Assembly (NCBI GenBank): GCA_965204495.1
Contig: OZ241989.1
Coordinates: 1,184,312-1,248,311 of the forward strand
Length of the DNA: 64,000 bases
Direction of reading: 5' to 3'
DNA from: Candidatus Hopanoidivoransaceae bacterium
GTDB lineage: Bacteria; Actinomycetota; Acidimicrobiia; Acidimicrobiales; Hopanoidiivorantaceae
The translations under genes and the position numbers were made by a program. Positions 13,080-54,084 of the stretch are shown here, piece after piece. The notes under the pieces are model-generated. The model worked only from the letters and a program-made list of their open reading frames with translations, did not search any database and was not told the origin of the DNA. Position 1 is the first letter of the stretch, and every line of letters starts with the position of its first letter.

Positions 13080-13080
13080 T

Positions 13081-13911
13081 TCAATTTGTGGCTGTCTCTG
13101 AAATTTGTACTGCTGATGGCCTGCCCAGTGTGCCATCCCAGATGTAAGCGATGAAACGACCTGAAGCGGAAAGTGTGTATTGCGTGTTTTCTTCTCTAGT
13201 TATGGTGATATTTATTGGATTGCAGATAACCGCAATGGCTGAAAAGTCTCCATGCACTAGTACATTTTCAGGCAAGTGTTGGTTTAGAATGGGCAAACCG
13301 ACATAATCCAGCTTTTCTCGCAATTTTGCGGCAGTTTTCGGATGGCACATCAAAAGCATATTGCTTGAAGTTGTGTTGTCTGTTGCTAGGTGTTCAAGAT
13401 TCAGTACTCTTTCATAGGAAGCATATTGGTTCCAAAATTTTTCAGTCAGTTCTTTGTTGCATCTTCTGGCATACAGTGGCAGCAGTCTGTTGAAAACCGT
13501 GTGTTCCGTCATAGTAGCCATTGTGTGGTCAGAGAACGGAACGCTGTCGGGTCGTTTCCAAGGTGTGGCCTGTAACCCTATACTTAGTTCAGCGGCTACT
13601 GTTGCTTCTCTGAATTGAATATCTGGAATGGGCAGTCCATGATAAAGATGCTCGCGAGCATCAGATATGACGGGCTGGCGGAACCCTGGCTGCTTCAATT
13701 CGCCTTCTAAATCTTTGACGCAGAAAGCTGATACTCTCGCCCAGAGAGGAGCCTCTTTCCTCATTCGATGCCGCACGCGAGACAGTGTTTTTGGATTGCA
13801 ATCCAAAGACATGAATGTTTTTGTAGACGGCTGACTGTCTTTTGGAGCAAACAGGTGTCGTCCTGTCCACTCTAGGGTATAAGACACAAAGGGGATCTCC
13901 GTTGATGTCAT
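13081..13911 (-). CDS. Hypothetical protein (276 aa), translationally coupled partner of the upstream AAA+ ATPase
   Basis: Its ATG overlaps the ATPase stop (ATGA at 13908-13911), with AAGGAG just upstream. AT-richer than the flanks. I recognise no motif. Confidence 0.6.
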   Translation of the reverse strand: MTSTEIPFVSYTLEWTGRHLFAPKDSQPSTKTFMSLDCNPKTLSRVRHRMRKEAPLWARVSAFCVKDLEGELKQPGFRQPVISDAREHLYHGLPIPDIQFREATVAAELSIGLQATPWKRPDSVPFSDHTMATMTEHTVFNRLLPLYARRCNKELTEKFWNQYASYERVLNLEHLATDNTTSSNMLLMCHPKTAAKLREKLDYVGLPILNQHLPENVLVHGDFSAIAVICNPINITITREENTQYTLSASGRFIAYIWDGTLGRPSAVQISETATN

Positions 13912-15395
13912 GTGCTTACTCCTTGTTGCAGCAGATAATTTTGCCTGACTTCCATTGCCAGCATAAAATGGCTTAAGGGCACGGACTTGATTTCGCTATG
14001 GTGATCAACGGGCGCATCGGGAGTTACCACATAAGTATTCCCCGCCAACTGGTTGTATCCGCTTTTTGACAGCAGTTTTTTTACTCCCTGCAGTTTGCGC
14101 ATTTTATTTGTATAGCTGCTGCCGACCTCTATTGCCAAAGGGGTGCCGCCCCGTTCTTCTTCCAAAACGAAATCTATCTCGCAGCCTTTGTCACGCAGAT
14201 GGGAAAGCTTAGCTCTGCCGAGCGTAAGTTTCACAAGTCCGTTCAAAGAAGCGGCGACCATGTTCTCAGCAGACCATCCTCGTTCGCTGTCGCGCATCTG
14301 TTCTGGAGTTCTAAAGCTCAAAGCTGCCGGAACAGAGTTGTCATAGAAAAAAACTTTTTTCTTTCGCTTCGGGCCTGAATAATTTGGCAGTAAGAACAGC
14401 AGCATTGCATCATCAAGTGCAGCAAAATATCTGTCTAGCGTGGTTTCTGCCATGCTGATATCTGGGTTTTTCGCCCATTCTTTTCTGACAACTTCCCGTC
14501 CAGGATGCTCTGCTGCTAGACGCAATATAGCAGAAGCTTTAATCGGGTTGGATATTTTAGAGTACTCTTCGATGTCCCGTTGAAGTATTTGGGTGATAAT
14601 CTGTCTGATGTGTCCGTGCCTTTCAACCATGAACTCTGCCTTTTCTCCATCATTCATCATTGGGCGAGGATACAAATTTTCTGGACACCCTCCTGTAGAT
14701 GCTAGATCCCAAAAATATTCCTGCAGAAGTTTGTCATTAAAGTCTGGAGCAATATGCTTAATTATTTCCCTCAACGGCTTGTCAGCAATTTGAAAAAAAT
14801 CTGGAAACGGCAGCGAACTGCGCACAAGATTTGCGGCTTCTTGCATCTGAGATGGAAGCAAATAATATTCAGATGCTCTGCCAGCCCAGCTTTCTATCAT
14901 TCCCCTGTTCAGTGCTGATGAAGAGCCTGATGTGCATACTATTCTGAACGGATACAGGGCTGGTTCATCATATGCCCGTTTCAGCGTTTTGTTCCACCCT
15001 CCTGAATACACTATTTCGTCCAGCAGAAGAAAACAAGGTTCTTTTTCTGAGGCGCCAGTGATAGATTTGATTCCCTCCAGAAGTTCGTGCAGTCTAATGC
15101 CTGTAAAAACATCGTCATCCAGAGACAAAAAGACTAGTTTTTCAGGTTGGCACCTTTGTTCTGTGACTGCTCGTTTGGCTAGATGCTTAAGGACTGTGGT
15201 CTTGCCTACCCTTCTGGGCCCCAGAATGACTTTGTGGCAGGCTCTTTGAGATATTGGCGTGGTGGTGATTTCTCGCCACAGCATCTGCGCTAGGGTCCGT
15301 TCTTCGCATGTATTCGCTTGGCTGTGAAAGCGGCCTGCGTCTGCCATCCAAGGGCTGTTCGCTTGGATGATGCGTCTAAGAAGTTCGATGTCCAT
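13908..15395 (-). CDS. AAA+ ATPase of the COG1373 type (AAA_14 plus DUF4143-like C-terminal region)
   Basis: Walker A GPRRVGKTT and Walker B LLLDEIVY. The track start 15413 is TTG. ATG 15395 (MDIELLRR) is preferred because TGCTATAAT ends 6 nt upstream, implying a leaderless transcript. Confidence 0.75.
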   Translation of the reverse strand: MDIELLRRIIQANSPWMADAGRFHSQANTCEERTLAQMLWREITTTPISQRACHKVILGPRRVGKTTVLKHLAKRAVTEQRCQPEKLVFLSLDDDVFTGIRLHELLEGIKSITGASEKEPCFLLLDEIVYSGGWNKTLKRAYDEPALYPFRIVCTSGSSSALNRGMIESWAGRASEYYLLPSQMQEAANLVRSSLPFPDFFQIADKPLREIIKHIAPDFNDKLLQEYFWDLASTGGCPENLYPRPMMNDGEKAEFMVERHGHIRQIITQILQRDIEEYSKISNPIKASAILRLAAEHPGREVVRKEWAKNPDISMAETTLDRYFAALDDAMLLFLLPNYSGPKRKKKVFFYDNSVPAALSFRTPEQMRDSERGWSAENMVAASLNGLVKLTLGRAKLSHLRDKGCEIDFVLEEERGGTPLAIEVGSSYTNKMRKLQGVKKLLSKSGYNQLAGNTYVVTPDAPVDHHSEIKSVPLSHFMLAMEVRQNYLLQQGVST

Positions 15396-15401
15396 GTGTC
15401 T

Positions 15402-15410
15402 ATTATAGCA
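15402..15410 (-). promoter_or_regulatory. Extended -10 TGCTATAAT of the ATPase cassette (leaderless start)
   Basis: The reverse complement of 15402-15410 is TGCTATAAT, 6 nt before ATG 15395. The palindrome CTATATCTT-N4-AAGATATAG lies at ~15432-15453 upstream. Confidence 0.55.
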
Positions 15411-15551
15411 CAAATTGGCAAAATGTGGTATTTAAATGCTATATCTTCTGCAAAGATATAGTATCAAGGGTGATATTTTGACAAAAGCTAGTCTTCATCC
15501 TCATGGCGAAGCCGAATTATGCGTTGCTTGGGCTTAGGCCGTTCTGGGATT

Positions 15552-36004: not shown

Positions 36005-37819
36005 ATGACATCAAATGCAGCAGATTCAATGTCTGAGCCGGCAGTGTCTGAGCCGGCTGTGCCGGATTCACTGGCAGTGTCGGACTCACTGTCAGTAGTG
36101 GCGTCGGAGACCGCAATGTCGCCGTCGGAAACCGCTGTCTCATTCGCAGACGAGCTCGACCCGCCCGAACTGGTGCCGGCCAGAATGCTCACGCAGTTTC
36201 TCTACTGCTCAAGGCTGTTCTATCTGGAGTGGGTGAATCAGCAATGGGACGACAATGCCCACACCGCTCAAGGCGAATATGTCCATCGGGCTGTGGACAG
36301 GATAGGCGGTGCCGCGCCGGCAGCAGACGATGACAATCCGTTTTTGGAGGCGAGGTCTCTGAAGCTGTCGTCTGAGAAGCTCGGTCTGGTGGCTGTGGTC
36401 GACTTGGTGGAAGGCAAAGGCGGCGAAGTTCATCCTGTGGATTACAAGAAAGCCAAACTGCCCGGCGATTTGGCATTGCAAACCTGGGAGTCGCACAGGG
36501 CGCAGCTTTGCGTGGCAGGGTTGCTGCTGCGAGAGGCAGGCTATGTGTGCACCAGCGGCAGCATCTACTATGCCGGCAGCAAGCGCAGGGTGGAGGTGCA
36601 TTTTGACGACGAGCTGGTAGACCAGACGATGTCGGCTCTGGAGGAACTGCGCGAAACGGCCACTCTGCCCGAAGCCCCGCCTCCGTTGGTGGACAGCCCC
36701 AAATGCCCCGACTGCTCGCTGGTGGGGATATGCCTGCCTGATGAAGTCAATCTTTTGGCAGAGATTTCCAAGCATCCGCCTCGCCGCTTGGTGCCTCGCG
36801 ATCCTCAGTCTCGCCCTGTTTATGTGGCTGAGCAGGGGGCGAGAGTGGGCAAGGCCAAAGGTCGGCTGCAAATCAAAAAAGACAGGGAAGTCATCCAAGA
36901 GGTGCGCTTGCTGGATGTCTCGCAGCTTTGTCTCTATGGCAATGTGCAGGTGTCTTCGCAGTGCGTTCGCGAGCTTTTGGGCAGGGATGTGCCGATCTGC
37001 TGGTTCAGCTTCGGCGGATGGTTCGCTGGCATGGCAACGGGTTTGCCTGCCAAGCATGTGGAGCTGCGGCGGCGACAGGTTGGCCGTTCTAGCGTGGGCA
37101 GAATGGACATCTCCAAAGCCATCGTGCGCTCCAAGATTTTGAACTCCCGCACTTTGCTGCGCAGAAATTTCAAAGGGGGCGATGAAGCTGTGCACCAGCG
37201 GACGCTGGCATCGCTCAAATATCTTGGGAAGGTGGCGGGCAGGGCTTCTACGGTCGCTGAGCTCATGGGCGTTGAGGGCGCGGCCGCACGGGATTATTTC
37301 CAAGCTTTCAACTCTATGCTCCGTGAAGAGCACGGCTTGCCCGGGCGTCCGTTTTCGTTTGAGGGGCGCAATCGCCGTCCGCCGTTGGATCCGATCAACT
37401 GTCTTTTGTCTTATTGCTATTCGCTGCTGACTAAGGAGTTGACGGTCGTGGCTCATGCTGTGGGGTTTGACCCTTACATCGGCTTTTTCCATAAGCCTCG
37501 GTTCGGGCGGCCTGCTCTGGCTTTGGATTTGGCCGAGGAGTTTCGCCCGTTGGTGGCGGATTCTGTTGTGATCACTTTGATCAACAATGACGAAATCAGA
37601 GCTTCGGATTTCGTGGTTCGCTCGGAAGGGGTTGCGCTCACCGATGCAGGCAAGAAGAAAGTCTTGGGGGCTTACGAGCGGCGTTTGGATGTGGAAATCA
37701 CCCATCCCGTGTTTGACTACAAGATCACATATCGCCGTGTTTTCGAGCTTCAAGCCCGTCTGCTGGCTGCCACGCTTTTGGACGAAGTGGCGGAATACAC
37801 GCCGTTTGCGACTCGGTGA
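36005..37819 (+). CDS. cas1: Cas4-Cas1 fusion protein (type I-G adaptation)
   Basis: N-terminal Cas4 features: LYCSRLFYLEW, DYKK, CPDCSLVGIC. The C-terminal ~330 aa is Cas1-like: VYVAEQGARVGKAKGRLQIKK...EGAAARDYF...NCLLSYCYSLL. Confidence 0.85.
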   Translation: MTSNAADSMSEPAVSEPAVPDSLAVSDSLSVVASETAMSPSETAVSFADELDPPELVPARMLTQFLYCSRLFYLEWVNQQWDDNAHTAQGEYVHRAVDRIGGAAPAADDDNPFLEARSLKLSSEKLGLVAVVDLVEGKGGEVHPVDYKKAKLPGDLALQTWESHRAQLCVAGLLLREAGYVCTSGSIYYAGSKRRVEVHFDDELVDQTMSALEELRETATLPEAPPPLVDSPKCPDCSLVGICLPDEVNLLAEISKHPPRRLVPRDPQSRPVYVAEQGARVGKAKGRLQIKKDREVIQEVRLLDVSQLCLYGNVQVSSQCVRELLGRDVPICWFSFGGWFAGMATGLPAKHVELRRRQVGRSSVGRMDISKAIVRSKILNSRTLLRRNFKGGDEAVHQRTLASLKYLGKVAGRASTVAELMGVEGAAARDYFQAFNSMLREEHGLPGRPFSFEGRNRRPPLDPINCLLSYCYSLLTKELTVVAHAVGFDPYIGFFHKPRFGRPALALDLAEEFRPLVADSVVITLINNDEIRASDFVVRSEGVALTDAGKKKVLGAYERRLDVEITHPVFDYKITYRRVFELQARLLAATLLDEVAEYTPFATR

Positions 37820-37942
37820 GACTGTCAATGAAACCCAGCTACTGCTTTAAAAGTCTGAACCGAGAACACGCGTCATTTTCAACTAGTGAAACTGTCAACT
37901 AGGTAAAACTGCCAACCCGATGAAATTCTCAATCCGCTAGCA
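37820..37942 (+). repeat. Five copies of a ~17-nt CTGTCAAC...GAAA-type unit between cas4/cas1 and the binding-protein gene
   Basis: GACTGTCAATGAAA (right after the cas4/1 stop), TTTTCAACTAGTGAAA, CTGTCAACTAGGTAAAA, CTGCCAACCCGATGAAA and TTCTCAATCCGCTAGCA. Confidence 0.6.
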
Positions 37943-37944
37943 TT

Positions 37945-39204
37945 ATGTTGATGAAATTCGTTATTTGTAAATCACTTGCTGCAGGCATAGCAATCCTGTC
38001 TGCTCTGTCGCTTTTTGCGGCTGCTTGCGGAGGCGATGATGGCAATGGCGGAGACGCGGATGCCGTGTCTGGCAGTGTCTTGAAGCTCGGCTACATCCTG
38101 CCTCAAACCGGCAGCTTGGCTTATTTGACAGATGCTATGGAAAACGGTGCGGCATTGGCAGTGGAGGAAGTCAATCGGGAGGGTATTCAAGAGATAGAGA
38201 TGGTAGCCGGCGACTCTGGCACCAATGCCGATGTAGCCAACAACACGGCCGACAGCCATATTGCCGAGGGCGTGCAGGGCATTGTCGGTGCGGGGGCATC
38301 GGCTGTTTCATTGGCAATCATCGACAAAATCACCGGCGTGGGGCTTCCGATGATCTCGCCGTCTAACACCTCTCCAGCTTTCACCGCCTATGACGACAGC
38401 GAGCTTTATTTCCGCACAATCGCTTCGGATGTGCTGCAAAGCAGGGTGATCGCCGACCTTATCGCCGAGGACGGCGCACGCCGAGTGGCCATCATGTATC
38501 GTGCCGATGCCTACGGAAAGGCTTTGGCTGACGCTTCCGAGCAAGGTCTTATCGCCAACGGCGTGGAATCCGCAGGCAAGTTCGCTTTGGATCCCGAAGG
38601 CAGCACCTTCACATCTGAGGTGCAGGAGGTTGCGGCATCGGGGGCCGATGCTGTGATTTTGATTGCGTTTCGCGAAGGCGGGCGGATCATCGCCGAGATG
38701 ATTGAGGCTGAAATCGGGCCAGGCGACATCGCTCTGTATGTGACGGCTGGTTTGGCTGTAGCCGATCTATGGGAGTTGGTCAATCCAGAAGATCGTTCGG
38801 CGGTGCAGGGAATACGAGGGACGCGCACCGGCGAGAGCGAGTCGGCTGAGCGGACTTTCAGAGATCGCTTTGCGGAATTCGCGCCTGGCGTGGATGATGC
38901 TTATGCTCCCGAAGCCTACGATGCGGTGGTGATCTATGCCTTGGCTGCTTTGGCGGCGGGAAGCAATCAGGCATCGGATTTTGCGTCTGAAATCAATGGC
39001 GTGACTCGTGGGGGCACAAAGTGCTCGCTGTATGCAGATTGCGCCGAGCTGGTGATGGCGGGTGAAGACATTGATTACGAAGGCGCGGCTGGTTCGCTGG
39101 ATTTCGTGGATGCCGGCGAGCCGAGCGTAGCGACTTTTGACATTTTGGAGTTTGATGCCGAGGGTGAAATCGTGGTGCTTTCGTCTAGGACGCTTCGGGG
39201 TTAG
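37945..39204 (+). CDS. ABC transporter substrate-binding lipoprotein (Liv/PBP1 type) located between cas4/cas1 and cas2
   Basis: Lipobox LFAAAC. LKLGYILPQTGSLAYL...GIVGAGASAVSLAI resembles branched-chain amino acid binding proteins. Confidence 0.75.
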   Translation: MLMKFVICKSLAAGIAILSALSLFAAACGGDDGNGGDADAVSGSVLKLGYILPQTGSLAYLTDAMENGAALAVEEVNREGIQEIEMVAGDSGTNADVANNTADSHIAEGVQGIVGAGASAVSLAIIDKITGVGLPMISPSNTSPAFTAYDDSELYFRTIASDVLQSRVIADLIAEDGARRVAIMYRADAYGKALADASEQGLIANGVESAGKFALDPEGSTFTSEVQEVAASGADAVILIAFREGGRIIAEMIEAEIGPGDIALYVTAGLAVADLWELVNPEDRSAVQGIRGTRTGESESAERTFRDRFAEFAPGVDDAYAPEAYDAVVIYALAALAAGSNQASDFASEINGVTRGGTKCSLYADCAELVMAGEDIDYEGAAGSLDFVDAGEPSVATFDILEFDAEGEIVVLSSRTLRG

Positions 39205-39226
39205 GATGCTTCGGGGTTAGGACGCG
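39186..39226 (+). repeat. 16-nt unit TAGGAYGCTTCGGGGT x2.5 spanning the stop codon of the binding-protein gene
   Basis: TAGGACGCTTCGGGGT (coding) TAGGATGCTTCGGGGT TAGGACGCG. The true stop TAG is at 39202-39204. Confidence 0.85.
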
Positions 39227-39389
39227 CGGCTGATTCCTGTGTTTCGTGTTTCTGTGGCATGGTCTTGGCAGCTGGTTGGGAAATTCAGTCTTGATGAACT
39301 TCACGCTTGTTCGCAGCACTCTTTCTGGTGTCTCGCCGGGTTTGAAAGTCTGATTGGCAAGCCTGTGCGGTTCTGAGTGAGGGAGATAT

Positions 39390-39686
39390 ATGAGTCGGAA
39401 TACCTATCTGGTCGCCTACGACATTTGCGGCGATGAAAAGCGTTTGCGGAAAATCCACCAATGCATGTGCGGGTATGGCTACTCTCTGCAATACTCGGTG
39501 TTCTTGTGCTCGCTGGATCAGGTTGAGCTGATCGACCTGAAGATGGATGTGAGCGAAATCATGAACCACAGAGACGACAGCGTAATGATCGTGTCACTAG
39601 GCCCCTCAGAAACGGCGGTGGAAAGTCATTTTGAATTCATGGGAGTCACCCCACCGAAATTTGACGAGGGAGCGGTCATCGTCTAG
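39390..39686 (+). CDS. cas2: Cas2
   Basis: 98 aa, YLVAYDICGDEKRLRKIHQCMCGYGYSLQYSVFLC. GAGGGA RBS. Immediately upstream of the leader and array. Confidence 0.85.
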   Translation: MSRNTYLVAYDICGDEKRLRKIHQCMCGYGYSLQYSVFLCSLDQVELIDLKMDVSEIMNHRDDSVMIVSLGPSETAVESHFEFMGVTPPKFDEGAVIV

Positions 39687-39968
39687 TTGGTTGCGCTGGT
39701 GGCGGTTGTCCGAGCATCTACAGCAGACAAAAAGATTCGCAGTCGATTCTGAAATAGCAAAGATATTTCTTGAGGGGGATGGGGGGTTCGAGGGGTTCCT
39801 GCGAGAGGTCGTGTGGCAACACCATCCCCAGCCACCTCTCGTGCCCTGCTACAATAACCCCAAAGAGGGGCATCCGAACCTTGGCAATCTATTCCCCAAA
39901 CAAAAAATCCCCACCCACTCGCAATCGGCCAATTCTCCCCAAGCCAATTGCGCCCAACAAAGTGAGTG
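39687..39968 (+). promoter_or_regulatory. CRISPR leader with candidate extended -10 TGCTACAAT at 39847-39855
   Basis: Non-coding stretch between cas2 and the first repeat. TGCTACAAT lies ~113 nt before repeat 1. The ORFs listed here are repeat or leader artefacts. Confidence 0.55.
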
Positions 39969-42363
39969 CTATCGGGGGGCAGTCCGCCCCCCCTTCATTG
40001 AAGCTGAGAAACTACATGATGAGCTTCGGGGAGGCTTATCTATCGGGGGGCAGTCCGCCCCCCCTTCATTGAAGCAGACCGCCTGATTACTTGCATCGTC
40101 ATTCTGAACCCCCTATCGGGGGGCAGTCCGCCCCCCCTTCATTGAAGCTCGCCGTGGTCTGTCGTCTCTACATGGACTGGCACTCTATCGGGGGGCAGTC
40201 CGCCCCCCCTTCATTGAAGCGCTTGACAATATGCGAACGCTGGAGGCGCACATCCTATCGGGGGGCAGTCCGCCCCCCCTTCATTGAAGCCACTCGGTTG
40301 AGAGATGAGACTGGTGCGGAGGCTTTCTATCGGGGGGCAGTCCGCCCCCCCTTCATTGAAGCTCAGCCATACAAACAGCCTAGCAGATAAGTTCCCTCTA
40401 TCGGGGGGCAGTCCGCCCCCCCTTCATTGAAGCCGCATGTCTTGGGCTGGTCGTTGATGACCCTGATTGCTATCGGGGGGCAGTCCGCCCCCCCTTCATT
40501 GAAGCAGGAACACGCCGAGCGCAGTAGCAGCGATGAAGCCCCTATCGGGGGGCAGTCCGCCCCCCCTTCATTGAAGCGAAGAATATGAGATGAGGTCTCT
40601 GCTGGATGGCTCCCTATCGGGGGGCAGTCCGCCCCCCCTTCATTGAAGCCGCTCTTGCGCTGTGCGCATCAGCGAGTTGAGCGTGCTATCGGGGGGCAGT
40701 CCGCCCCCCCTTCATTGAAGCAGCGGCATCTACACCACCAGCCAAGCCAAACCCTGCTATCGGGGGGCAGTCCGCCCCCCCTTCATTGAAGCTAGCTGGC
40801 AGCTATCAGCCTGCCCGCAACCTTCTGCTATCGGGGGGCAGTCCGCCCCCCCTTCATTGAAGCCTGGCAGAGCAAGGAGTTGCCAGACATGCATGCTGCT
40901 ATCGGGGGGCAGTCCGCCCCCCCTTCATTGAAGCGGCAGCGATGGCTGACGGCATCGCCTGCCTCGGCAGCTATCGGGGGGCAGTCCGCCCCCCCTTCAT
41001 TGAAGCTCGTGGATTGCTGATCCTATTGTTGCTAGCACGAGCTATCGGGGGGCAGTCCGCCCCCCCTTCATTGAAGCATTCAGTGTCGGCACAGAAAAAG
41101 TCGCAAGTTCGGCTATCGGGGGGCAGTCCGCCCCCCCTTCATTGAAGCTCTGGTGAAGAAGCCAGCGATACCACCATCTTCAACTATCGGGGGGCAGTCC
41201 GCCCCCCCTTCATTGAAGCCGCAGCGTCTTCTTCACTTGAGCGTCCGATAGGTATCTATCGGGGGGCAGTCCGCCCCCCCTTCATTGAAGCGGCTGGGGA
41301 CACCTCCACAGCGCAACAGCCTCTATCTATCGGGGGGCAGTCCGCCCCCCCTTCATTGAAGCATCAGGACACCTTTGCCATTGCCTCCATCGCCGTCTAT
41401 CGGGGGGCAGTCCGCCCCCCCTTCATTGAAGCAAGACCCTGAGAGTTTTGAATCTGAGAGGTTTTTACTATCGGGGGGCAGTCCGCCCCCCCTTCATTGA
41501 AGCTTATCAGGCAGGCTTCACGGGGCAGCTAGCCCCGTCTATCGGGGGGCAGTCCGCCCCCCCTTCATTGAAGCAGAGTGAAACAAGCTAGTTCCATTTT
41601 GGCACGAAAACTATCGGGGGGCAGTCCGCCCCCCCTTCATTGAAGCGGACTTGTTAAATGCGGATGATGAGCTTGTGGCGGCCTATCGGGGGGCAGTCCG
41701 CCCCCCCTTCATTGAAGCTGGCGGTCTCTCATCCCGCCGCAAGCCATAAACGAACTATCGGGGGGCAGTCCGCCCCCCCTTCATTGAAGTCTGCGCCTTT
41801 GTAGCCTGTGCCTGCCACGACAGACCTATCGGGGGGCAGTCCGCCCCCCCTTCATTGAAGTGATATTGTGTCATTCTCAGTCTCGTGTTTGTGGTGGCTA
41901 TCGGGGGGCAGTCCGCCCCCCCTTCATTGAAGTTCTACCAGTTCTGAGGTTATTTTGGTGACGGCTGACTATCGGGGGGCAGTCCGCCCCCCCTTCATTG
42001 AAGTTTGGCAATACTTTGAGGCTCTGCCCGCTCAGGTGGACTATCGGGGGGCAGTCCGCCCCCCCTTCATTGAAGTGCCTATCTGGGTAGCGTTCGTATG
42101 AGTCACCTGCGCCTATCGGGGGGCAGTCCGCCCCCCCTTCATTGAAGTGCAGTCCACGCGATCACTCCAATAGTGATTCCTATGCTATCGGGGGGCAGTC
42201 CGCCCCCCCTTCATTGAAGTGCTTCACACGCACTAGCAGCCTACGCCCGACTCACCTATCGGGGGGCAGTCCGCCCCCCCTTCATTGAAGTTATTCCATC
42301 TCCACCTGATACAAAAGCCCAGAGCGCCTATCGGGGGGCAGTCCGCCCCCCCTTCATTGAAGC
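39969..42363 (+). CRISPR. CRISPR array: 34 repeats of 36 nt and 33 spacers of 34-37 nt
   Basis: The repeat is CTATCGGGGGGCAGTCCGCCCCCCCTTCATTGAAGC. It contains a 7-bp stem GGGGGGC/GCCCCCC with a 5-nt loop, followed by an 11-nt tail ending ATTGAAGC. I located every repeat start by hand from 39969 to 42328. Repeats 26-33 end in T instead of C. Confidence 0.97.
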
Positions 42364-42391
42364 GGGGGGTAGGCGATTTTTGGCTGGTGTT

Positions 42392-44062
42392 TTAGAAATC
42401 TAGGTCTGGGGCGGGTTCTAGTTGTCCTGCTGACAGGGGGGTTTCTGCTTCGCTTTCTGTGAGGAACACCACGTCGCCGTCTATGAATTGTGGTCGTAGG
42501 GGGTCTTTTCTGTGATACAAATTGCAGGGCTCTAGCACTCTGTAATTTTTGCCCTTGGTCACACCGCCTCTCAAAATCATCTCTTGGACTGATTGAGCGT
42601 TCACAGCCAGCAAGAAAACAGCCAATGGCAATTCACCGATGCCTAGAGGGTGATGTTCGGGGCGAACCACAGGGCTGCGTGGTGTCACCATGTATGAGTT
42701 TCCCCTGAATTTTTCTTTCTCTTCTACAAGTTTTTTTAATCCCTTCAGATGATGATCCTTTGAGTTTCCTACTTCAAACGCCAAGGGATCCTCTGTCTCT
42801 CCGCCGAAAATGAAATCTACCTCATATGTTTCTCTTAGGCGCCAATATTCCAGAGTCATCCAACTGTTCTCTGCCAGCTCTTTTAATGCCGCTCCCGCCG
42901 CATTTTCCAGCACATGGCCTTTCTTTGGGAGATCTTCCAGCCCTGATGTCCCCATTCTCCTAACGGCCGAAGGAACGGCTGGGTCAAAGAAGCAGTATTT
43001 CTGGTTGCCAGCCTTCCGCATCGGTGCGTCGGAATAGGCGTCTAGTCGGAAGAGAATGTTCGCATTCTCCAAATGGGAGAGATATGTGCTTGTTGTTTTT
43101 CCCTGAGCTTCGCCCAGCTGTTTGCCAATCTTGGCAACTGTGGTCTGCTTGCCGAGCAGACCCGCGACAGAATGCATTACGGCCTCAAGAGTTTTCCGAT
43201 CTCTGACATCATGGAAGGCAACTATGTCTTTGTCAACCGCCCTGCCTACTACCTCTTTGAGGTATCCATGATCCCGTCTGACCGCTGCTCTGAGGCTCGG
43301 GTTATGCGTGGAATGGTCATATCCAGTGATGCACACGGGGTATCCGCCTGTGATGAGGTATCTGTCCAGAGCAGTCGCTACCTGCTCGGGAACGGGCGAG
43401 ACCTGCGGGATTGATTGAAGCCGTGCTCGCAAAGATGGATATCCTGTTCTGCACCATTTTGGAATGATGCTGGCATCGCCGAAAACAAATTCGCACCATT
43501 CCATGAAATTGCAAGCCATCAAGCGATATTCTGCCCAGCGGTCTGGGCCGCTTTCTGGTTTGCGCTTGTCGTTATTGGCAAGGATCATCCCAGAACTGGA
43601 AGACGCTAAAACTCTGATGGGTCTGTTTTGAGCGAGAAGATTTTTTAGCCACAGGTCCCAGTCGTCGCTTGCTCCTATCTCGTCCAAGAACAGAAAAATC
43701 GGCTCATCGATGCTGGCATCGGGGCACAGCAGCAACAAGGCATCTGCTATCGCCCCTAGATTTTCCATCTGAAGCTCCGGGTGATCCAGTTCCACGAAAA
43801 AGATGCGCTCTCTGGGTATTCCCTTGTCTAGCAAGCTGTCAATAGACTGCCAAAGCAGCGTGGTTTTGCCAGACCTGCGGGGGCCCAGCACAAGATGGTA
43901 GCATCGCGGGTCGTCTCGGATGAGGGTGTCGGGCAGAACTCGCATCATGTGCCTGTGCTTGGGCAGGGATTTCTCCGTCAGCTCGGACGAGTCTGTTTTC
44001 CACCCGTTCTGATCCTCGAGTATTTCTTGGAAGCGGGGTATGTCTATGTATTGAAATGCCAT
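42392..44062 (-). CDS. AAA+ ATPase of the COG1373 type (AAA_14 plus DUF4143-like), second copy
   Basis: Walker A GPRRSGKTT and Walker B FLFLDEIGASDDW. The track start is 44098; ATG 44062 (MAFQYIDI) has GGAGG 7 nt upstream. AT-richer than the array and the cas4/1 region. Confidence 0.75.
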   Translation of the reverse strand: MAFQYIDIPRFQEILEDQNGWKTDSSELTEKSLPKHRHMMRVLPDTLIRDDPRCYHLVLGPRRSGKTTLLWQSIDSLLDKGIPRERIFFVELDHPELQMENLGAIADALLLLCPDASIDEPIFLFLDEIGASDDWDLWLKNLLAQNRPIRVLASSSSGMILANNDKRKPESGPDRWAEYRLMACNFMEWCEFVFGDASIIPKWCRTGYPSLRARLQSIPQVSPVPEQVATALDRYLITGGYPVCITGYDHSTHNPSLRAAVRRDHGYLKEVVGRAVDKDIVAFHDVRDRKTLEAVMHSVAGLLGKQTTVAKIGKQLGEAQGKTTSTYLSHLENANILFRLDAYSDAPMRKAGNQKYCFFDPAVPSAVRRMGTSGLEDLPKKGHVLENAAGAALKELAENSWMTLEYWRLRETYEVDFIFGGETEDPLAFEVGNSKDHHLKGLKKLVEEKEKFRGNSYMVTPRSPVVRPEHHPLGIGELPLAVFLLAVNAQSVQEMILRGGVTKGKNYRVLEPCNLYHRKDPLRPQFIDGDVVFLTESEAETPLSAGQLEPAPDLDF

Positions 44063-44411
44063 CGTTCTACCTCCGTTATCTGAATTATGTATCTGCATTA
44101 TACATGTTTTTCAGTTATATGACAACCTATTTTGTTGATGATTTTGCCATATATTGGAGATTGATAGCATTTTCTAGGATTTTAAGGCTTATAGAACTGG
44201 AAATCTTGGAATATCTAGAATATAGATATCCAAATTCCAAGAAGCTAGATTTGTCCATCACAGACGGAATTAGCTTGCCTAATTCGCTTCTGCTATGTTT
44301 GTGCCGGCGCAGGCGAGTGAAGTGGTCGGCGTGTCAGTGATTGTGCCGTATGTGACCTGCCGAGAGCACGGCATCGATTATCTCTGCGGTTAGTGCTTTC
44401 ACCGCGCCGGC

Positions 44412-44447
44412 TTTCGGGGGGCGGTCCGCCTACCTTAATTTGAAGCT
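44412..44447 (+). repeat. Degenerate CRISPR repeat (28/36 identical to the array repeat)
   Basis: CTTTCGGGGGGCGGTCCGCCTACCTTAATTTGAAGC versus CTATCGGGGGGCAGTCCGCCCCCCCTTCATTGAAGC. A weaker repeat-like stretch begins 72 nt later (~44484-44523). Confidence 0.75.
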
Positions 44448-44495
44448 GGTTTGGCTGCTACTACCGCAGGGCTACTGGATCTGTTTCTGGGGTAG

Positions 44496-44729
44496 TCAAC
44501 TGCTCCCTTCCCCAATTTGGCCTTCCACTTGGTCATTGAGCAGATCCATTTTGGATTTGACTTCGTGGTTCCAGCAAGAGTAGCGCCTCATTCTGAGCGT
44601 GATTGTCTCTTCGGAGCGATCAGGGTCTGGTTTAACGCAATCAATTTCCGACGTGACAAACATGATGCTCAAGATGACGATGAGTAGGAAAAGGATGGTG
44701 GATGAAATGCTTACAACGAGTTTGAACAT
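44496..44729 (-). CDS. Small membrane protein (77 aa), hypothetical
   Basis: N-terminal hydrophobic helix MFKLVVSISSTILFLLIVILSIMFV, with AAGAAAGG upstream. Its 3' end overlaps repeat-like sequence, so it is uncertain. Confidence 0.35.
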   Translation of the reverse strand: MFKLVVSISSTILFLLIVILSIMFVTSEIDCVKPDPDRSEETITLRMRRYSCWNHEVKSKMDLLNDQVEGQIGEGSS

Positions 44730-44863
44730 GATAGTGCCTTTCTTGTGATGGTTGGATTAGGGGATCTTGGTGTTTGTCGAAGTGTTGTCGCACCCGCTGC
44801 GGTCAATCCGCTAATTGCGGTGCGACTTCTTTGCCCATGAACAATGGCTGCCAACATGTCGGG

Positions 44864-44991
44864 GCGGTGATGGTGATGTGTCGCAACCCACCTTGTTTCT
44901 CGAGCGGGCCGCAGGTGCAGTCGGCTACTGGTGCTGCGCGGTGATGGCGATGTGTCGCTACCTACCCTTCGGGGGGGGGGGCGATTTGAAG
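44864..44991 (+). repeat. ~32-nt direct repeat pair (period 74) ending in a G11 tract plus GATTTGAAGT (CRISPR-repeat-like 3' end)
   Basis: GCGGTGATGGTGATGTGTCGCAACCCACCTT at 44864 and GCGGTGATGGCGATGTGTCGCTACCTACCCTT at 44938, followed by C-G11-CGATTTGAAGT. CTTAAATTGAAGC occurs at ~45058-45070. Confidence 0.6.
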
Positions 44992-45090
44992 TGACAAGGC
45001 GGGATTAGTTTGGATTAATTCATTCTAGTTAATTTTGGGAGGGTTCGTCAAGCTTGTCTTAAATTGAAGCCAGATGGTTTGCGCTGAGAA

Positions 45091-45198
45091 GTTGCTATAT
45101 TCTATCAAAATCTGGTGTGGGGCAAATTACAAGTCATCGCCGTTGTCGGCCGAAATAAGATGTTGCTATATTCTATCAAAATTCGGTATGGCGCATAT
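45091..45198 (+). repeat. AT-rich 37-nt direct repeat pair with 71-nt period (two-repeat mini-array-like)
   Basis: GTTGCTATATTCTATCAAAATCTGGTGTGGGGCAAAT at 45091 and GTTGCTATATTCTATCAAAATTCGGTATGGCGCATAT at 45162. They are 32/37 identical and the first 21 nt are perfect. Confidence 0.7.
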
Positions 45199-45222
45199 AA
45201 GAGCTCCTTTGTGCCCCAGCTC

Positions 45223-46659
45223 TTAGTGGGCTGTTTCTACGGCATTGGAGATGCCAGTTCGCGGGAACGAAGGGGACCCCGTTTCGAGGGCTCTTTTTCT
45301 TCCTTTTGCTCTAGGTGTTTTAAGCTGTTTCTTGAAAAAAATGTCTGCTAGGTCGCAGTATATGGTTTCTATACTTGAATACATCTCTATCAATTCTCCA
45401 AATTCTTCATCAATTTTCGCGAGTTCTTCCATTTTTGAAATTAGAGACTTAATGCTAGAGCAGATGCTTTGAATAATTTGAAAACACTCTTCCATAAGTT
45501 CTTCATCAGTTGTTGATTGAACTAGGAACACCATGCTGTTATTTCGCATGTTGAGTTTCACAAAGCTGGGCTCATCCAAATCTTCATTTTCAAAGAGATT
45601 GATGTCTTGACAAATATCTGAGAAAGCCAAAGTTTCTATAATAAAATCTACGATGCCACTTAATATTTCAGCAGATTGACAAATAAATGTTCCAGTATTT
45701 TCTAAAGTATCCGACTCATCGAGAAATAAATCGGATCCATTGCCAACATAATTTTCTGTAAACCAAGTTGGGAAGTTGTCTAATCTAGTTTGCAAATTTG
45801 CAATTTGCAAGCAAAAATTGTCATATTCATCTACGCATTCTTCCAATGACTCAAGAACTTGATCAAATTCGCCTTGTGTCGGCCTAATATCGCTCAGACG
45901 AAAGTTTGCTTGATTCCACGAAAATTCAATAGAGAATATTCCCCCAAAATCTTCTATGTTCCAGATTTCAGAGCAGCGTTCCAAAGCTTCTTGAGCATAA
46001 TTCAAGAATTGCGATGAATCAGAAGCGAAGCACATTATTTGTCTTATATCAGACCAAAGAGAACTGAAGTACGCTACTTCTGCCTCACTAAGTTGTGTTT
46101 GCAAAATAGTGAAGTTGTCGCAGACTTTACTAAATTCTGGTGAGCACTCAGATACCACAATATTAGTTTCTATACCATCTGCACAAGTTTTTGTTGTTTC
46201 AATATACTCCAGTAGTGCCTTGTTGACCTCAGATGATAAATCAACAGGCAGAGTTTCTAACTCATCAGACAACTGGGTGATTTGCTGTTGGGTCAGCCAT
46301 TCGGGAGCAGGCGAATTGCGGGCCTCTGGCGAGAGCAGAGATAGCAAAAATTTGATGAGCTGGGTGTCTGGATCATCTGGTGCTGATTCATCTCCTGATA
46401 ATTGGGATGCCCTTTCTGCGAGGATATCTTCTGCTGTAGGTGTCTCGCTAGGAAGTGTCGGAGTGTTAGAAGTCGAAGTTGCTGGGGACGTGGTGGTGCT
46501 TGAAACGGCAGAGGTGCTTGGTTGCGTGGTAGGCGAAGAAGGAGCAGATTGGTTTTCGGTTGCTACAGGCTTGGAGGCATCCGCGCATCCAGCCAAGAGC
46601 AGACAGACTGCCAGCACACCCAAGACAGAACGACTCAGCGATGGAAGGGTGGAAGGCAC
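45223..46659 (-). CDS. Acidic Cys-rich lipoprotein (478 aa), function unknown
   Basis: Lipobox LLLAGC and a Ser/Thr/Pro linker, then repeated E.C-x7-10-C helical-looking segments (ECSPEFSKVC, ERCSEIW, EECVDEYDNFC, EECFQIIQSIC). Markedly AT-rich. Confidence 0.65.
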   Translation of the reverse strand: MPSTLPSLSRSVLGVLAVCLLLAGCADASKPVATENQSAPSSPTTQPSTSAVSSTTTSPATSTSNTPTLPSETPTAEDILAERASQLSGDESAPDDPDTQLIKFLLSLLSPEARNSPAPEWLTQQQITQLSDELETLPVDLSSEVNKALLEYIETTKTCADGIETNIVVSECSPEFSKVCDNFTILQTQLSEAEVAYFSSLWSDIRQIMCFASDSSQFLNYAQEALERCSEIWNIEDFGGIFSIEFSWNQANFRLSDIRPTQGEFDQVLESLEECVDEYDNFCLQIANLQTRLDNFPTWFTENYVGNGSDLFLDESDTLENTGTFICQSAEILSGIVDFIIETLAFSDICQDINLFENEDLDEPSFVKLNMRNNSMVFLVQSTTDEELMEECFQIIQSICSSIKSLISKMEELAKIDEEFGELIEMYSSIETIYCDLADIFFKKQLKTPRAKGRKRALETGSPSFPRTGISNAVETAH

Positions 46660-46789
46660 GAATTGTCAGGTTAGTCGGAGCGCGCCATCTTTGAGCGGGA
46701 CTACTTTCTGAGCACAAAATGAAGGGGCGACACATCTGTGCAGCCCTTCATGAGCATTTGCGCAGATTTGATGGTCTGCGGGGGTGGTG

Positions 46790-47212
46790 TCAGGCTGCCA
46801 CTTTTACTTCCACTTGGCGGGGTGCTTCGGGCACTACCAGCGGGACGGTGACAGTCAGCACGCCGAATTTGCTTTCGGCTGAGGGTTGGGCTGAGTCGGC
46901 GTCTTCGGGGAGACGGATGCGGAACTCTGCGTTGTCGCTGGTTCCCCATGCTCCTACCGGGACGAAATTCTTGGGCTCTTCGTCTGCGGAGTCGTTTTCG
47001 TGCTTCTCGTCTGTGATGGCCACGAGAAGTTGGTGATCAGCGATGCTGACTGCGATCCTTGCTGGATCAACGCCTGGGAGGGCGAAACGATACTCCAGCC
47101 TGTCTGGGAAGCGGGTGGCCGATGGCCGGGGCAGCTCCCTTCGGGCTGTGAGAACCCCATTGGATGGGGACTTGAAGAAGATGTCGAAAAGGTCATCCAT
47201 TTGCCTGAGCAT
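46790..47212 (-). CDS. Hsp20/alpha-crystallin family small heat-shock protein
   Basis: The track ORF extends to 47287. ATG 47212 (MLRQMDDLFD) has AAAGGA ~9 nt upstream. ACD-like C-terminus AEFRIRLPEDAD...KFGVLTVTVP. Confidence 0.8.
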   Translation of the reverse strand: MLRQMDDLFDIFFKSPSNGVLTARRELPRPSATRFPDRLEYRFALPGVDPARIAVSIADHQLLVAITDEKHENDSADEEPKNFVPVGAWGTSDNAEFRIRLPEDADSAQPSAESKFGVLTVTVPLVVPEAPRQVEVKVAA

Positions 47213-47293
47213 TGTTCTATCCTTTCTGTTCGGTGCTTTGCTCTTAAAGCTGTACAACGCAAACAGGGAGGGATTTATTCCAAGCATTTGGAA

Positions 47294-47310
47294 GCGGAAT
47301 TCAATTCCGC
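47294..47310. promoter_or_regulatory. Perfect 17-nt palindrome GCGGAATTCAATTCCGC upstream of hsp20 (candidate operator)
   Basis: 8-bp arms around a single central base. The loop is too short for an RNA hairpin, so a dimeric DNA-binding site is more likely. It lies between the cas8u-like stop and the hsp20 start. Confidence 0.4.
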
Positions 47311-47362
47311 GAAAATGTGATGACAGTCCTGGATCACAGGGCTTCAGACAAAAAAGATAGCA

Positions 47363-48294
47363 CTAATTGCTATTGGCTGTCCGCCAGATTATTTGGGGTG
47401 GACTGAAGGTGCCATAGCCACCTTGATCTGAGCGCAGTATCTGCGATTGCAGAATTCGGGATATTCCCCATGATGGATAGAAGTGGCTACGATTTTCTGG
47501 TGTTAAGCTGGTGGCTTGTGCGAGGAGGGCAATCACGGTTCCAAATCCTGCGGGGCGAATCCAAAGAGGCCAAGTATATTTTCCCTGTTTCCAACCACCT
47601 GAGCAACCAAGTGTTAAGGTTCTCTTGCCGTCTTGCCTTGAAAATACTGGATGTCTGCTAAACCCTAAAATTGCTAGAGCTTCGGGACCAGGATTTGTGT
47701 ATTTGTCGGTAGTGGATGGGTTGGAGGCTGATAAGGCGTAAACACGGTCGTCAACTATATCCCACATTAATGATTCTTTTTTGCTTTGATATGGCCAAGG
47801 GCCAATAAGACCTTCGGTTATATCGTCTTCAGTTGCGGAAGTAAGAATTTCTTGTGCCATGCTAAGAAATTTTTGTTGGCCTGCTGTGAAGTAGAGATCG
47901 TTTGGTTTGGCTATATTATTGTTGTCATAGCTTCCTTCGGCTATCAATGCTGTGGCAAATTCGCTACCAATTTGTCCAACTGACGACATGAGGTATTCTC
48001 TAACCGTTTCATCAGAGAACTTGGCTTTTTCTTTTTCTGCTTTTGTCCCAAGCTTTGGAGCCAGAGCAGGGCTTTTTGCCCATTTGGGGAAGACTGCCAT
48101 TGCTTGATCTACTATTTTTTCCACTGGGTAAGCCTCGCTGACGATGGCATGGGGGATGACATCGTTTGACCACCAGAGCTTGGGTTGGTCGGGCTCGTCG
48201 GCGAAGAGGACTTGGACACCTAGGGCGGCAAAGAAGCCTAGGGGGTTGGTGCCGTCTAGTCCGGTCAGGTGAATGCCTTCGTATGCTTGGGTCA

Positions 48295-48295
<1 letters not shown>
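47363..48295 (-). CDS. Short Cas8u-family (Csb3/Csx17-like) putative large subunit
   Basis: The ATG at 48295 overlaps the cas3 TGA. The N-terminal LTGLDGTNPLGFFAALGVQVLFADE resembles the PLG..LKALGV..L motif I recall at Csx17/Cas8u N-termini. Last gene of the effector operon. Confidence 0.5.
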
Positions 48296-52777
<4,482 letters not shown>

Positions 52778-52780
52778 GGC

Positions 52781-54013
52781 TTACTCCGCTTCTGGCTTTT
52801 CGGTTTTGGCTGCTTTTCGGCTTTTCGCCAATAGCTCAATCAGCTTCGGGGAGGGTTCTAGCCGTATCTCGGATGTCTCCCAGCCGATGCCAGCCTTTTC
52901 CGCCTCCTCAGCAGCCCGCTTCAGAATGTCGGATGCGACCGATCTGTTGATGTCCACAACAGTGGGGGCTGAGCCATCCCGTGCTACAAGTTCCAAAGTT
53001 TGGGTTTCAGTCGGAATCAGAAGACATCTGGAGCGAAGGTCGTAGTCGTGCTCATATAGATAAGCGGCGGCTGCTACGCCGAGTGCTGCGATGGCGGTCT
53101 GAGCCGCCGCTTCTTTGGCGCGGTCGCGTCCTCCGAAACGAAGCTTCCTCAAGGCTGCTAGCGAAATCACAGTAGTTTGGACTGCCCCTGAGATGGTCAC
53201 GCCGCCCGACAGAGAATCTATAGAGGGTGCGATGTTGCCGTGGTTGATTTCTGAGGGTCTGCCTATGACTTTGGGCTTGCCTTTTTCTTTGGCAGCTTCG
53301 TCTTCGTTGACGGTCCAGACTTGGGCAGGGTCTGCATGCTCGTAGATGAGATCTTCGGCTGACAATTTTTCAATCGCGAGAGGATCCAGCCGGCTGCCTA
53401 CTTTCTTGCCGACCTGCACATCCAAGCCGATGATCTCTGAGACATAGGCTCGCTGGAATTTCGACCCCAACCCGCCCTTCGGCCCTGTGCTGTCCCAAAC
53501 TCCGAACAGCAGGGCTGTGGGCGAATACCGATATAGGGCGGTGGCGTCTCGTGGGGTGGCGTTGGTTATCTGCTGTCCGACATCAGACAGGCGGAACAGA
53601 GTGCCGTCCAGCAGGCTGTCGCGGAAGATGGCATCGGCTATCCTGTGCGGAGCTTCAAGGGCTGTGAGCTTGCCGATTTCGCTCAAGTCTTCCTCGTCGC
53701 TCTTGGCATCTGAAAAATCCACATATGGAACGGGAAACGCTAGATCGCCGTCCAGCCAGCCTTCCAGCAGGGCTTCTTCGGCTCGGTTGGCCTGAGACGC
53801 TACCGAGTCCAACAGCACGGTTTCCACTTCTTTGTCGTTGATTTGGCGCGTCTCCACAGCGTATTTGTGGTCGGCTCGGCCGTCAACGGCGTATGAGGGC
53901 GGAAACACCTTGTCTTCGGTTCCGCCAGCAGGTGCCAGCGACAGACGAGACCGCAAAGCTACGGCACCTCCCGCTGTGGCTTCTGAAAGCTGTTCAAAAG
54001 TGAGTTCGGTCAT
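52781..54013 (-). CDS. csb1: Csb1 (Cas7u, type I-G)
   Basis: The track start 54073 is TTG. ATG 54013 (MTELTFEQL) has AAGGAG 7 nt upstream. LAPAGGTEDKVFPPSYA...VLLDSVASQANRAEEAL matches my memory of Csb1. Confidence 0.8.
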   Translation of the reverse strand: MTELTFEQLSEATAGGAVALRSRLSLAPAGGTEDKVFPPSYAVDGRADHKYAVETRQINDKEVETVLLDSVASQANRAEEALLEGWLDGDLAFPVPYVDFSDAKSDEEDLSEIGKLTALEAPHRIADAIFRDSLLDGTLFRLSDVGQQITNATPRDATALYRYSPTALLFGVWDSTGPKGGLGSKFQRAYVSEIIGLDVQVGKKVGSRLDPLAIEKLSAEDLIYEHADPAQVWTVNEDEAAKEKGKPKVIGRPSEINHGNIAPSIDSLSGGVTISGAVQTTVISLAALRKLRFGGRDRAKEAAAQTAIAALGVAAAAYLYEHDYDLRSRCLLIPTETQTLELVARDGSAPTVVDINRSVASDILKRAAEEAEKAGIGWETSEIRLEPSPKLIELLAKSRKAAKTEKPEAE

Positions 54014-54084
54014 GATTTTCTCCTTGATGGCTTGTCTGTGTTTTGGGTGTTCTGCTGTTGGGTAGGGTGTCAAATCGCAATTGC

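Follow-up and report, generated by a model that had tools for sequence, protein, structure and literature searches.

CRISPR arrays can be split by inserted genes or mobile elements, and genome-wide off-target spacer integration occurs in the type I-E system of E. coli. Degenerate terminal repeats, together with the duplication and deletion of whole units via repeat misalignment, are usual array behaviour (PMC8047081; bioRxiv 10.1101/2022.05.19.492656); ectopic spacer acquisition within arrays is treated in PMC7999890 and by McGinn & Marraffini as cited in bioRxiv 10.1101/2022.05.19.492656, and standalone repeat-like sequences are found in 46% of type I-G loci (PMC10120712).

The field discussed here, positions 44412-45198 of the whole 64-kb stretch of DNA that was analysed (the window), is probably the fossil distal (trailer) end of a type I-G array. 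It resembles the degenerate terminal repeats of PMC8047081 in several respects: leader-distal repeats that are substituted or truncated, above all in the hairpin and the 3' part, array orientation, resistance to recombination, and duplication and deletion at the scale of the unit. It differs from them in that several fossil units are spread over ~0.7 kb and interrupted by two genes; compared with known degenerate tails, the last recognisable repeats lie 2.0-2.7 kb past the live array. As in gene-split arrays, a cassette sits between array repeats and the array is active on the leader side; unlike in those arrays, one candidate defence gene (DUF4143 ATPase, PADLOC PDC-S01) makes up the insert, in which no recognisable transposase and no terminal repeats were noticed, and decayed repeats serve another, much smaller gene as its putative promoter and its 3' end.

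The type I-G locus and its relatives

The window contains a complete type I-G CRISPR-Cas locus, whose cas set is the only one detected there with Pfam, NCBIfam and PADLOC. Its components are the following:

36005-37819, plus strand: cas4/cas1 fusion
Between cas4/cas1 and cas2, plus strand: periplasmic-binding-protein gene
39390-39686, plus strand: cas2
39687-39968, plus strand: CRISPR leader on the cas2 side, recognised by upstream conservation
39969-42363, plus strand: live type I-G array, 34 repeats CTATCGGGGGGCAGTCCGCCCCCCCTTCATTGAAGC, period 70-73 nt
42364-44411, minus strand: inserted cassette with an AAA_14/DUF4143 ATPase gene (Pfam AAA_14, DUF4143)
42392-44062 (ORF to 44098), minus strand: the ATPase gene (PADLOC PDC-S01, 1e-32)
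44125->44097, minus strand: putative ATPase promoter TTGTCA-17-TATAAT, from a promoter scan
45223-46623, minus strand: 441-466-aa lipoprotein-like gene with an AT-rich C-terminal part, conserved in the I-G locus (the 445-aa gene below)
47363-48355, minus strand: cas8g
48295-51144, minus strand: cas3g
51131-52777, minus strand: csb2
52781-54073, minus strand: cas7g
In the minus-strand cas side of the locus, minus strand: HSP20 gene

Regarding the live array, its modal period is 71-72 nt, made up of a 36-nt repeat and spacers of 34-37 nt, and the repeat folds into a hairpin of -17.5 kcal/mol (z=-2.7). The 3' end of the repeat is ATTGAAGC, the usual handle, which indicates that the array is transcribed on the plus strand. 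The leader, of which the 200 nt 5' of the first repeat are >90% conserved across lineages with only ~50%-identical 445-aa proteins, is on the cas2 side, so that the field, placed between the live array and the lipoprotein-like gene, is at the trailer end. The live array is still turning over: two more distal units are present in the related locus L011, and none of the spacers recurs in L012, whose flanks are identical.

As for the relatives, the 445-aa protein has five homologue clusters only among 5.8 billion proteins, and fourteen related loci were obtained from the contigs of the homologues and of the cluster members. Four layouts occur among them. In L009 and L020, the array adjoins the 445-aa gene directly, at a distance of ~38 nt. 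In L008, L013 and L014, the order is 445-aa gene, an inserted NYN gene, a conserved hairpin segment (segment S), one AT-rich element, a degenerate terminal repeat and the array. L016 and L017 have, in this order, one AT-rich core, a decayed terminal repeat, the predicted promoter TTGACG-18-TAGAAT and a gene for a 77-aa protein, then a decayed repeat that overlaps the 3' end of this gene, a 37-nt spacer, an intact repeat and the regular array, with no ATPase gene. Finally, the full field is present as in the window in L011 and L012, the flanks being identical, and in L005, L018 and L019, at ~95% identity.

The 445-aa gene follows cas8g, with or without the HSP20 gene, in L008-L014 and L020, and its low GC content is common to all lineages; judging from this conservation, it is part of the I-G locus rather than cargo. 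The preliminary description had considered that the AT-rich pair in the field could be a relic of AT-rich cargo, a view that finds no support, as the adjoining AT-rich gene is conserved, at the same low GC, in the I-G locus of every lineage.

Fossil repeats and genes in the array tail

Repeats were sought by scoring 60-nt windows against the array repeat; 5,830 background windows taken elsewhere in the analysed stretch served as the null. Together with the genes and segments around them, the fossil units (psiR) are arranged as follows:

44412-44447, plus strand: psiR1, fossil repeat CTTTCGGGGGGCGGTCCGCCTACCTTAATTTGAAGC, from its similarity to the array repeat and its L016 orthologue
44448-44481, plus strand: fossil spacer between psiR1 and psiR2, from position alone
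44482-44523, plus strand: psiR2, fossil repeat 72 nt after psiR1, in phase; the 77-aa gene has its 3' end inside it
44496-44729, minus strand: 77-aa gene, coding for a small protein with a hydrophobic N-terminal helix; frame conserved
44766-44980, no strand assigned: 215-nt segment (~3 array periods) that holds a direct pair, specific to the window and L005 lineages
44967-44992, plus strand: psiR3, collapsed fossil repeat CTTCGGGGGGGGGGGCGATTTGAAGT, from exact words common to psiR1
44993-45031, minus strand: AT-rich fossil spacer between psiR3 and psiR-term, holding the -10 box of the predicted 77-aa gene promoter
45032-45070, plus strand: psiR-term, decayed terminal repeat with 3' end CTTAAATTGAAGC at 45058-45070, from positional homology
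45199-45306, no strand assigned: segment S, conserved hairpins, probable bidirectional terminator, from four hairpins and a T-run

Every element listed in the preliminary description was found again where it had been placed, and its main proposal, a field of decayed repeats, holds: the copies derive from the array next to them, whose orientation they keep and whose phase they roughly follow. The degenerate repeat at 44412, psiR1, has a score of 47.5 against a best background value of 37.5 (empirical p<2e-4), and it is the orthologue of the final intact repeat in the live L016 array. Its hairpin is reduced to -9.3 kcal/mol (z=0.13), and it contains a 10-nt indel, the L005 version being 10 nt longer than that of the window. 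The candidate at ~44484 in the 72-nt phase, psiR2, is likewise supported (score 29.5, p=0.008); its L016 orthologue, TTTCGGAAGGCGGTCAGCC..., is clearer (p=0.014).

The other two copies are more eroded. As regards psiR3, the reading of 44967 as a collapsed repeat is borne out in part: this copy has exact 9-mer/8-mer words in common with psiR1, TTCGGGGGG and ATTTGAAG, but its gapped alignment to the array repeat is not significant (score 22.5, p=0.19). Its poly-G run (44971-44981) is hypervariable, with 7, 8, 10, 11 or 13 G depending on the strain. The sequence at ~45058, noted as similar to the 3' end of the repeat, is the end of psiR-term, which reaches a score of 25.0 (p=0.076) when taken alone; its orthologues give p=0.0003 in L013 and p=0.039 in L016. 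Its position is that of the homologous degenerate terminal repeat in the L008, L013 and L014 arrays, and it is kept in L016/L017. Of the four, psiR1 alone is beyond doubt individually, and psiR3 and psiR-term rest on short motifs and positional homology.

All four decayed repeats (44412, ~44484, 44967 and 45032) have the array orientation. psiR1 and psiR2 are 72 nt apart, and the 3' ends of psiR3 and psiR-term are separated by 78 nt; positions 44447 and 44992 lie 545 nt apart, which makes 7.6 periods, not an integer, with the gene in between. Within the window, no further fossil repeat was significant at 44756, 44826, 44893 or 45128, nor among the hairpins of segment S, and the conserved trailer 19-mer and the 24-nt repeat core had zero matches in two metagenome scans. 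Derivation of psiR1 and its flank as a duplicate of psiR-term and its flank was rejected, the alignment being unconvincing past the repeat. Finally, the live array repeat begins with CTATCGG and the fossil copies with TTTCGG/CTTCGG, as do the repeats of L009, L013, L016 and L020: the fossil copies keep the older 5' end of the sister lineages, and the live array of the window lineage has changed to CTATCGG.

Two genes interrupt this tail. The ATPase gene is missing in L016, where the array runs on directly, and it adjoins a repeat in L006, L011, L012 and L018; the cassette was inserted, probably at a later time, into the spacer that precedes psiR1 towards the leader, and it split the 44412 copy from the live array. 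The second gene corrects the earlier view of the field as mostly non-coding: the conserved 77-aa frame at 44496-44729 is called in L005, L011, L012, L018 and L019, and its L016/L017 homologue is 86% identical. The frame is intact at ~10% divergence from L016/L017, with 9 synonymous and 13 non-synonymous codon differences, and the sequence past its stop codon cannot be aligned with those loci; the ORF appears from this comparison to be a real gene. Its product has no family match in Pfam, NCBIfam or PADLOC. The predicted promoter, TTGACG-18-TAGAAT, matches 10/12 positions in the promoter scan and is 92% conserved in L016/L017. Its -35 box TTGACG, at 45051->45046 on the minus strand, is inside psiR-term, and its -10 box TAGAAT, at 45027->45022, is in the AT-rich fossil spacer. 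No structured RNA was detected in the 5' region of the gene, with z-scores near 0 on both strands.

On the side of the 445-aa gene, the tail is closed by segment S, which is 78% identical to its counterparts in L008, L013 and L014, and has four conserved hairpins, the last of them followed by a T-run, with one compensatory pair; placed between the array tail and the convergent 445-aa gene, it is probably a bidirectional terminator. In L013, one segment-S hairpin, 146 nt away from the terminal repeat, itself looks like a repeat (p=0.003).

The closest functional alternative to a fossil tail is that the pairs of degenerate repeats are working regulatory mini-arrays; as with CreA/CreR, their crRNA-like RNAs would direct the I-G Cascade to a promoter and so repress it. 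Elements of this sort have been described in type I systems, among them 4% of I-G loci (PMC10120712). Like the repeat-like elements of Shmakov et al. 2023 (PMC10120712) and CreTA/CreR, the copies described here are degenerate repeats outside the array and inside the locus, arranged in part as repeat-spacer-repeat, adjoining cargo genes (those of the candidate defence ATPase and of the hydrophobic 77-aa protein) and conserved among close strains; both psiR1-spacer-psiR2 and psiR3-spacer-psiR-term have spacer-sized gaps and are conserved in the window and L005 lineages. They differ from those elements on three points. Matches of the pseudo-spacers to the promoters and intergenic regions of the locus extend to 9-10 nt at most, the 95th percentile of the null being 10, and the psiR1-psiR2 spacer has 0 significant matches to locus promoters or elsewhere in the window; the processing hairpin is, in silico, degraded in psiR1 and gone in psiR2 and psiR3; and the copies are, from the comparison with relatives, remains of the array and no dedicated regulatory module, that at 44412 being simply the last repeat of the live array in L016. 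Moreover, plus-strand transcription of the array now runs into the convergent ATPase gene. A regulatory role for these pairs is therefore considered unlikely.

The AT-rich pair and the 44864/44938 pair

Past the last decayed repeat, the field ends with two copies of an element of 39% GC:

45087-45127, no strand assigned: AT-rich element copy 1, core 45091-45111, a single orthologous copy in sisters
45128-45157, no strand assigned: 30-nt filler of 50% GC, unrelated to the flanks at offset 71
45158-45198, no strand assigned: AT-rich element copy 2, 35/41 identical to copy 1

The pair is located 20 nt past psiR-term and ahead of the terminator-like hairpins of segment S. As described earlier, the copies at 45091 and 45162 are 32/37 identical at an offset of 71; the identity extends over 41 nt at 85% and, like that of the 44864/44938 pair, is far above chance. 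The first 25 nt agree at 24 positions (AGAA against AGAT, then an identical 21-nt core), the next 16 nt at 11, and about half of the positions match over 10 nt more. The 21-nt core has only these two occurrences in the window with up to 3 mismatches allowed (0.00 expected).

The pair had been interpreted as a mini-array of another repeat family, and it does formally fit CRISPR spacing (23-47-nt repeats), with 37-41-nt units 71 nt apart and a unique filler of 30-34 nt, beside a CRISPR-cas locus. The orthologous sites contradict this interpretation, as they are single-copy: L016/L017 have one orthologous AT core, matching at 19/21 positions, with one A fewer in the A-run and a different last base, and L008, L013 and L014 have a single, diverged AT element in the corresponding place of the trailer. 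Nor do spacers turn over between strains: copies and filler are identical in 7 of them, bar point changes. The unit gives no significant hairpin relative to shuffled sequences (z -0.8 and -1.6), shows neither the ATTGAAGC handle nor the G/C hairpin that the resident repeat has, and has no Rfam match at the gathering threshold or at E<=10, CRISPR-DR families included, apart from chance snoRNA matches. No array with the AT core was found in 185,579 species-representative genomes, among which the source lineage is not represented and where the 20-nt core has 4 isolated matches in unrelated MAGs; the 18-nt core has zero matches in viral contigs, and blastn of 45030-45330 against plasmid and phage records returned nothing. 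Dispersed copies are likewise missing from the collections searched, and no second cas set exists within the 64-kb window. A second, low-GC CRISPR family is accordingly a most improbable reading; more probably, the pair arose when a trailer element that is conserved among the relatives was duplicated locally.

As for the role of this element, the core is almost unchanged, with its sequence TTGATAGAATATAGCA intact, only in lineages having the 77-aa gene. Its minus strand contains an extended -10, TGATAGAAT (45099-45107 in copy 1), which precedes the main promoter of that gene by ~45 nt in copy 1 and by ~115 nt in copy 2. Since the core is kept together with the gene and carries the extended -10 on its strand, it is probably a locally duplicated minus-strand promoter or regulator site upstream of the 77-aa gene. 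Both copies read GCTGC in L005, L018 and L019, against GTTGC in the window and in the single-copy lineages, a concerted change that suggests gene conversion or shared constraint.

The left flank AGAT of copy 2 is also found at copy 1 in L005, and GAT in L016, so that no fewer than 41 nt were duplicated, which leaves 30 nt at most for the filler. A plain tandem duplication of a 71-nt or 74-nt unit was rejected for the field, given that the sequences agree at those offsets over 41-53 nt and 29 nt only; the filler of the AT-rich pair matches neither flank, which again argues against plain tandem duplication. The filler itself has no match in the window, the related loci or viral contigs. The L016 right flank resembles it weakly, at a marginal p=0.07; such a resemblance, if real, would make the filler ancestral.

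These data bear on the proposal, also made earlier, that the pair is an ectopic-integration scar; in this reading, the I-G Cas4/1-Cas2 would have treated trailer sequence as a repeat and integrated a spacer off target. The likeness to ectopic spacer integration consists in a direct duplication, an unrelated filler and the array's own period: the 71-nt offset equals the modal 71-72 nt, the filler is unlike both flanks and has 50% GC inside an element of 39% GC, sister lineages have one copy and no filler, and an active adaptation module is ~5 kb off. The dimensions do not agree with it, because the duplication takes in the 4 nt AGAT, giving a unit of at least 41 nt and a filler of at most 30 nt instead of the expected 36 and 34-37 nt. 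Nor does anything at the site look like a repeat or a leader, the window, related loci and viral contigs yielded no protospacer (the event being old and the lineage sparse in databases), and an ancestral filler, as hinted at by L016, would speak against integration. The proposal is thus poorly supported, and a scar of this kind has only a slim chance of being the right explanation.

The second pair is part of the 215-nt segment, in place of which L016/L017 have 5 nt. Its copies, 44864-44892 and 44938-44966, are 26/29 identical (90%) at an offset of 74 (E=1.5e-6), in agreement with the direct repeat of period 74 first reported, and the second copy continues into C-G11-CGATTTGAAGT. The segment has no match in the other loci, no significant RNA structure and no recognisable fossil repeats inside. 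Duplication of a spacer-plus-repeat unit was tried for this pair and rejected in its simple form, as the segments 3' of the copies are unrelated. In both pairs, then, the offset is near the array period and the duplication covers part of a unit only, so that neither a simple unit duplication nor a plain tandem duplication accounts for them. Both, at offsets 71 and 74, could stem, instead of from accidents of slippage, from the adaptation machinery or from some other process that is specific to arrays and works at the unit scale, acting on non-repeat trailer DNA; this common origin is judged very unlikely. If true, it would offer a natural snapshot of new repeat-spacer-repeat units forming beside an array, with the AT-rich copies homogenised afterwards.

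Probable ageing of the array at its far end

Returning to the fossil tail, a likely course of events can be outlined. New repeats would join at the cas2-side leader, and the far end, no longer kept uniform, would decay, with indels striking the G/C runs of the repeat hairpin hardest; the fossil units would in this way have lost their crRNA output. The gene for the 77-aa membrane protein would have settled on the opposite strand within the fossil tail, its promoter arising in psiR-term and the adjoining fossil spacer, and its 3' end overlapping another decayed repeat. Later, the DUF4143 ATPase cassette would have entered the spacer upstream of the then-last good repeat, separating the 44412 repeat from the live array, and this repeat would have decayed in its turn. 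The tail would also have been reshaped by gains or losses at the scale of the unit, of 215 nt (~3 periods) and of 71 nt (1 period); the AT-rich pair would be one such local event, its 21-nt core held identical through gene conversion or constraint.

In conclusion, the feature is of an ordinary, known kind, well resolved by comparison, and it leaves the current understanding of CRISPR biology unaltered. For annotation it carries a warning: relaxed CRISPR detectors would report the AT-rich pair as a second array, which the relatives contradict. It is also a clean example of how an array ages at its far end, where decay is fastest at the G/C hairpin runs, whole units come and go and genes settle within the tail, and where a candidate defence gene is able to split the array without halting acquisition at the leader end.

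Spacer turnover and the collapsed repeat

Trailer-end spacers are usually described as the conserved "anchor" of an array, a description that does not hold for the live array of this type I-G locus (39969-42363), because L012, a near-identical strain, shares none of its spacers, and L011, another such strain, contains all 33 of them, its trailer end being longer by two units. As for the flanks, over 42364-45330 those of L012 and the window are identical except for the length of one poly-G tract. This tract (44971-44981) lies inside the collapsed repeat, in the 5' region of the gene for a 77-aa small membrane protein, and it has 7, 8, 10, 11 or 13 G among otherwise near-identical strains; such variation could act as a modulator of expression.

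In a rearranged relative (L006 and L007), the ATPase is followed by a decayed repeat, a spacer, a repeat, a truncated HSP20, the 444-aa gene, a solo decayed repeat and unrelated DNA. The contigs are short (~4 kb) and no cas genes occur on them; the arrangement looks like a remnant from recombination between repeats.

The ATPase and 445-aa genes

The DUF4143 ATPase gives a match to PDC-S01, a candidate defence family of PADLOC, and it probably starts at 44062 (556 aa) rather than at the first ATG, 44098 (ORF 42392-44098). The 44062 start has the RBS GGAGG and gives the 556-aa form called in relatives; the first ATG overlaps the gene's own -10 box. A GC-rich block of 128 nt (44284-44411), with an 8-bp inverted repeat, GCCGGCGC / GCGCCGGC, at both edges, separates the ATPase promoter region from the fossil repeat at 44412.

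At the 3' end of the 445-aa gene (45223-45330), a T-run reads GACATTTTTTTCAAG in window-type strains and GACATCTTTTTTCAAG in the ~95% identical locus L005, being 1 base shorter in the former. The resulting frameshift replaces the final few residues of the window-type protein and lengthens its ORF by ~27 codons, so that it runs on into the conserved segment with the probable terminator; in relatives, the stop is near 45303.

A second low-GC stretch

Positions 13001-15000 form a second low-GC stretch (46-47% vs about 58%), which may have been horizontally acquired, with two ORFs:

13081-13911, minus strand, ORF
13908-15413, minus strand, ORF; the only one of the two scanned against NCBIfam, with no match

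Possible accessory genes of the I-G locus

Across the window (36005-39686 and 45223-54073) and six related loci (L009, L011-L014 and L020), each lineage of the I-G locus carries a gene for a Peripla_BP_6 substrate-binding protein, placed between cas4/1 and cas2, and a 441-466-aa lipoprotein-like gene 3' of cas8g. The latter is preceded by an HSP20 gene in most lineages (none was called there in L009), and it has only 5 homologue clusters among 5.8 billion proteins. The Peripla_BP_6 and lipoprotein-like genes may be unusual conserved accessory genes.
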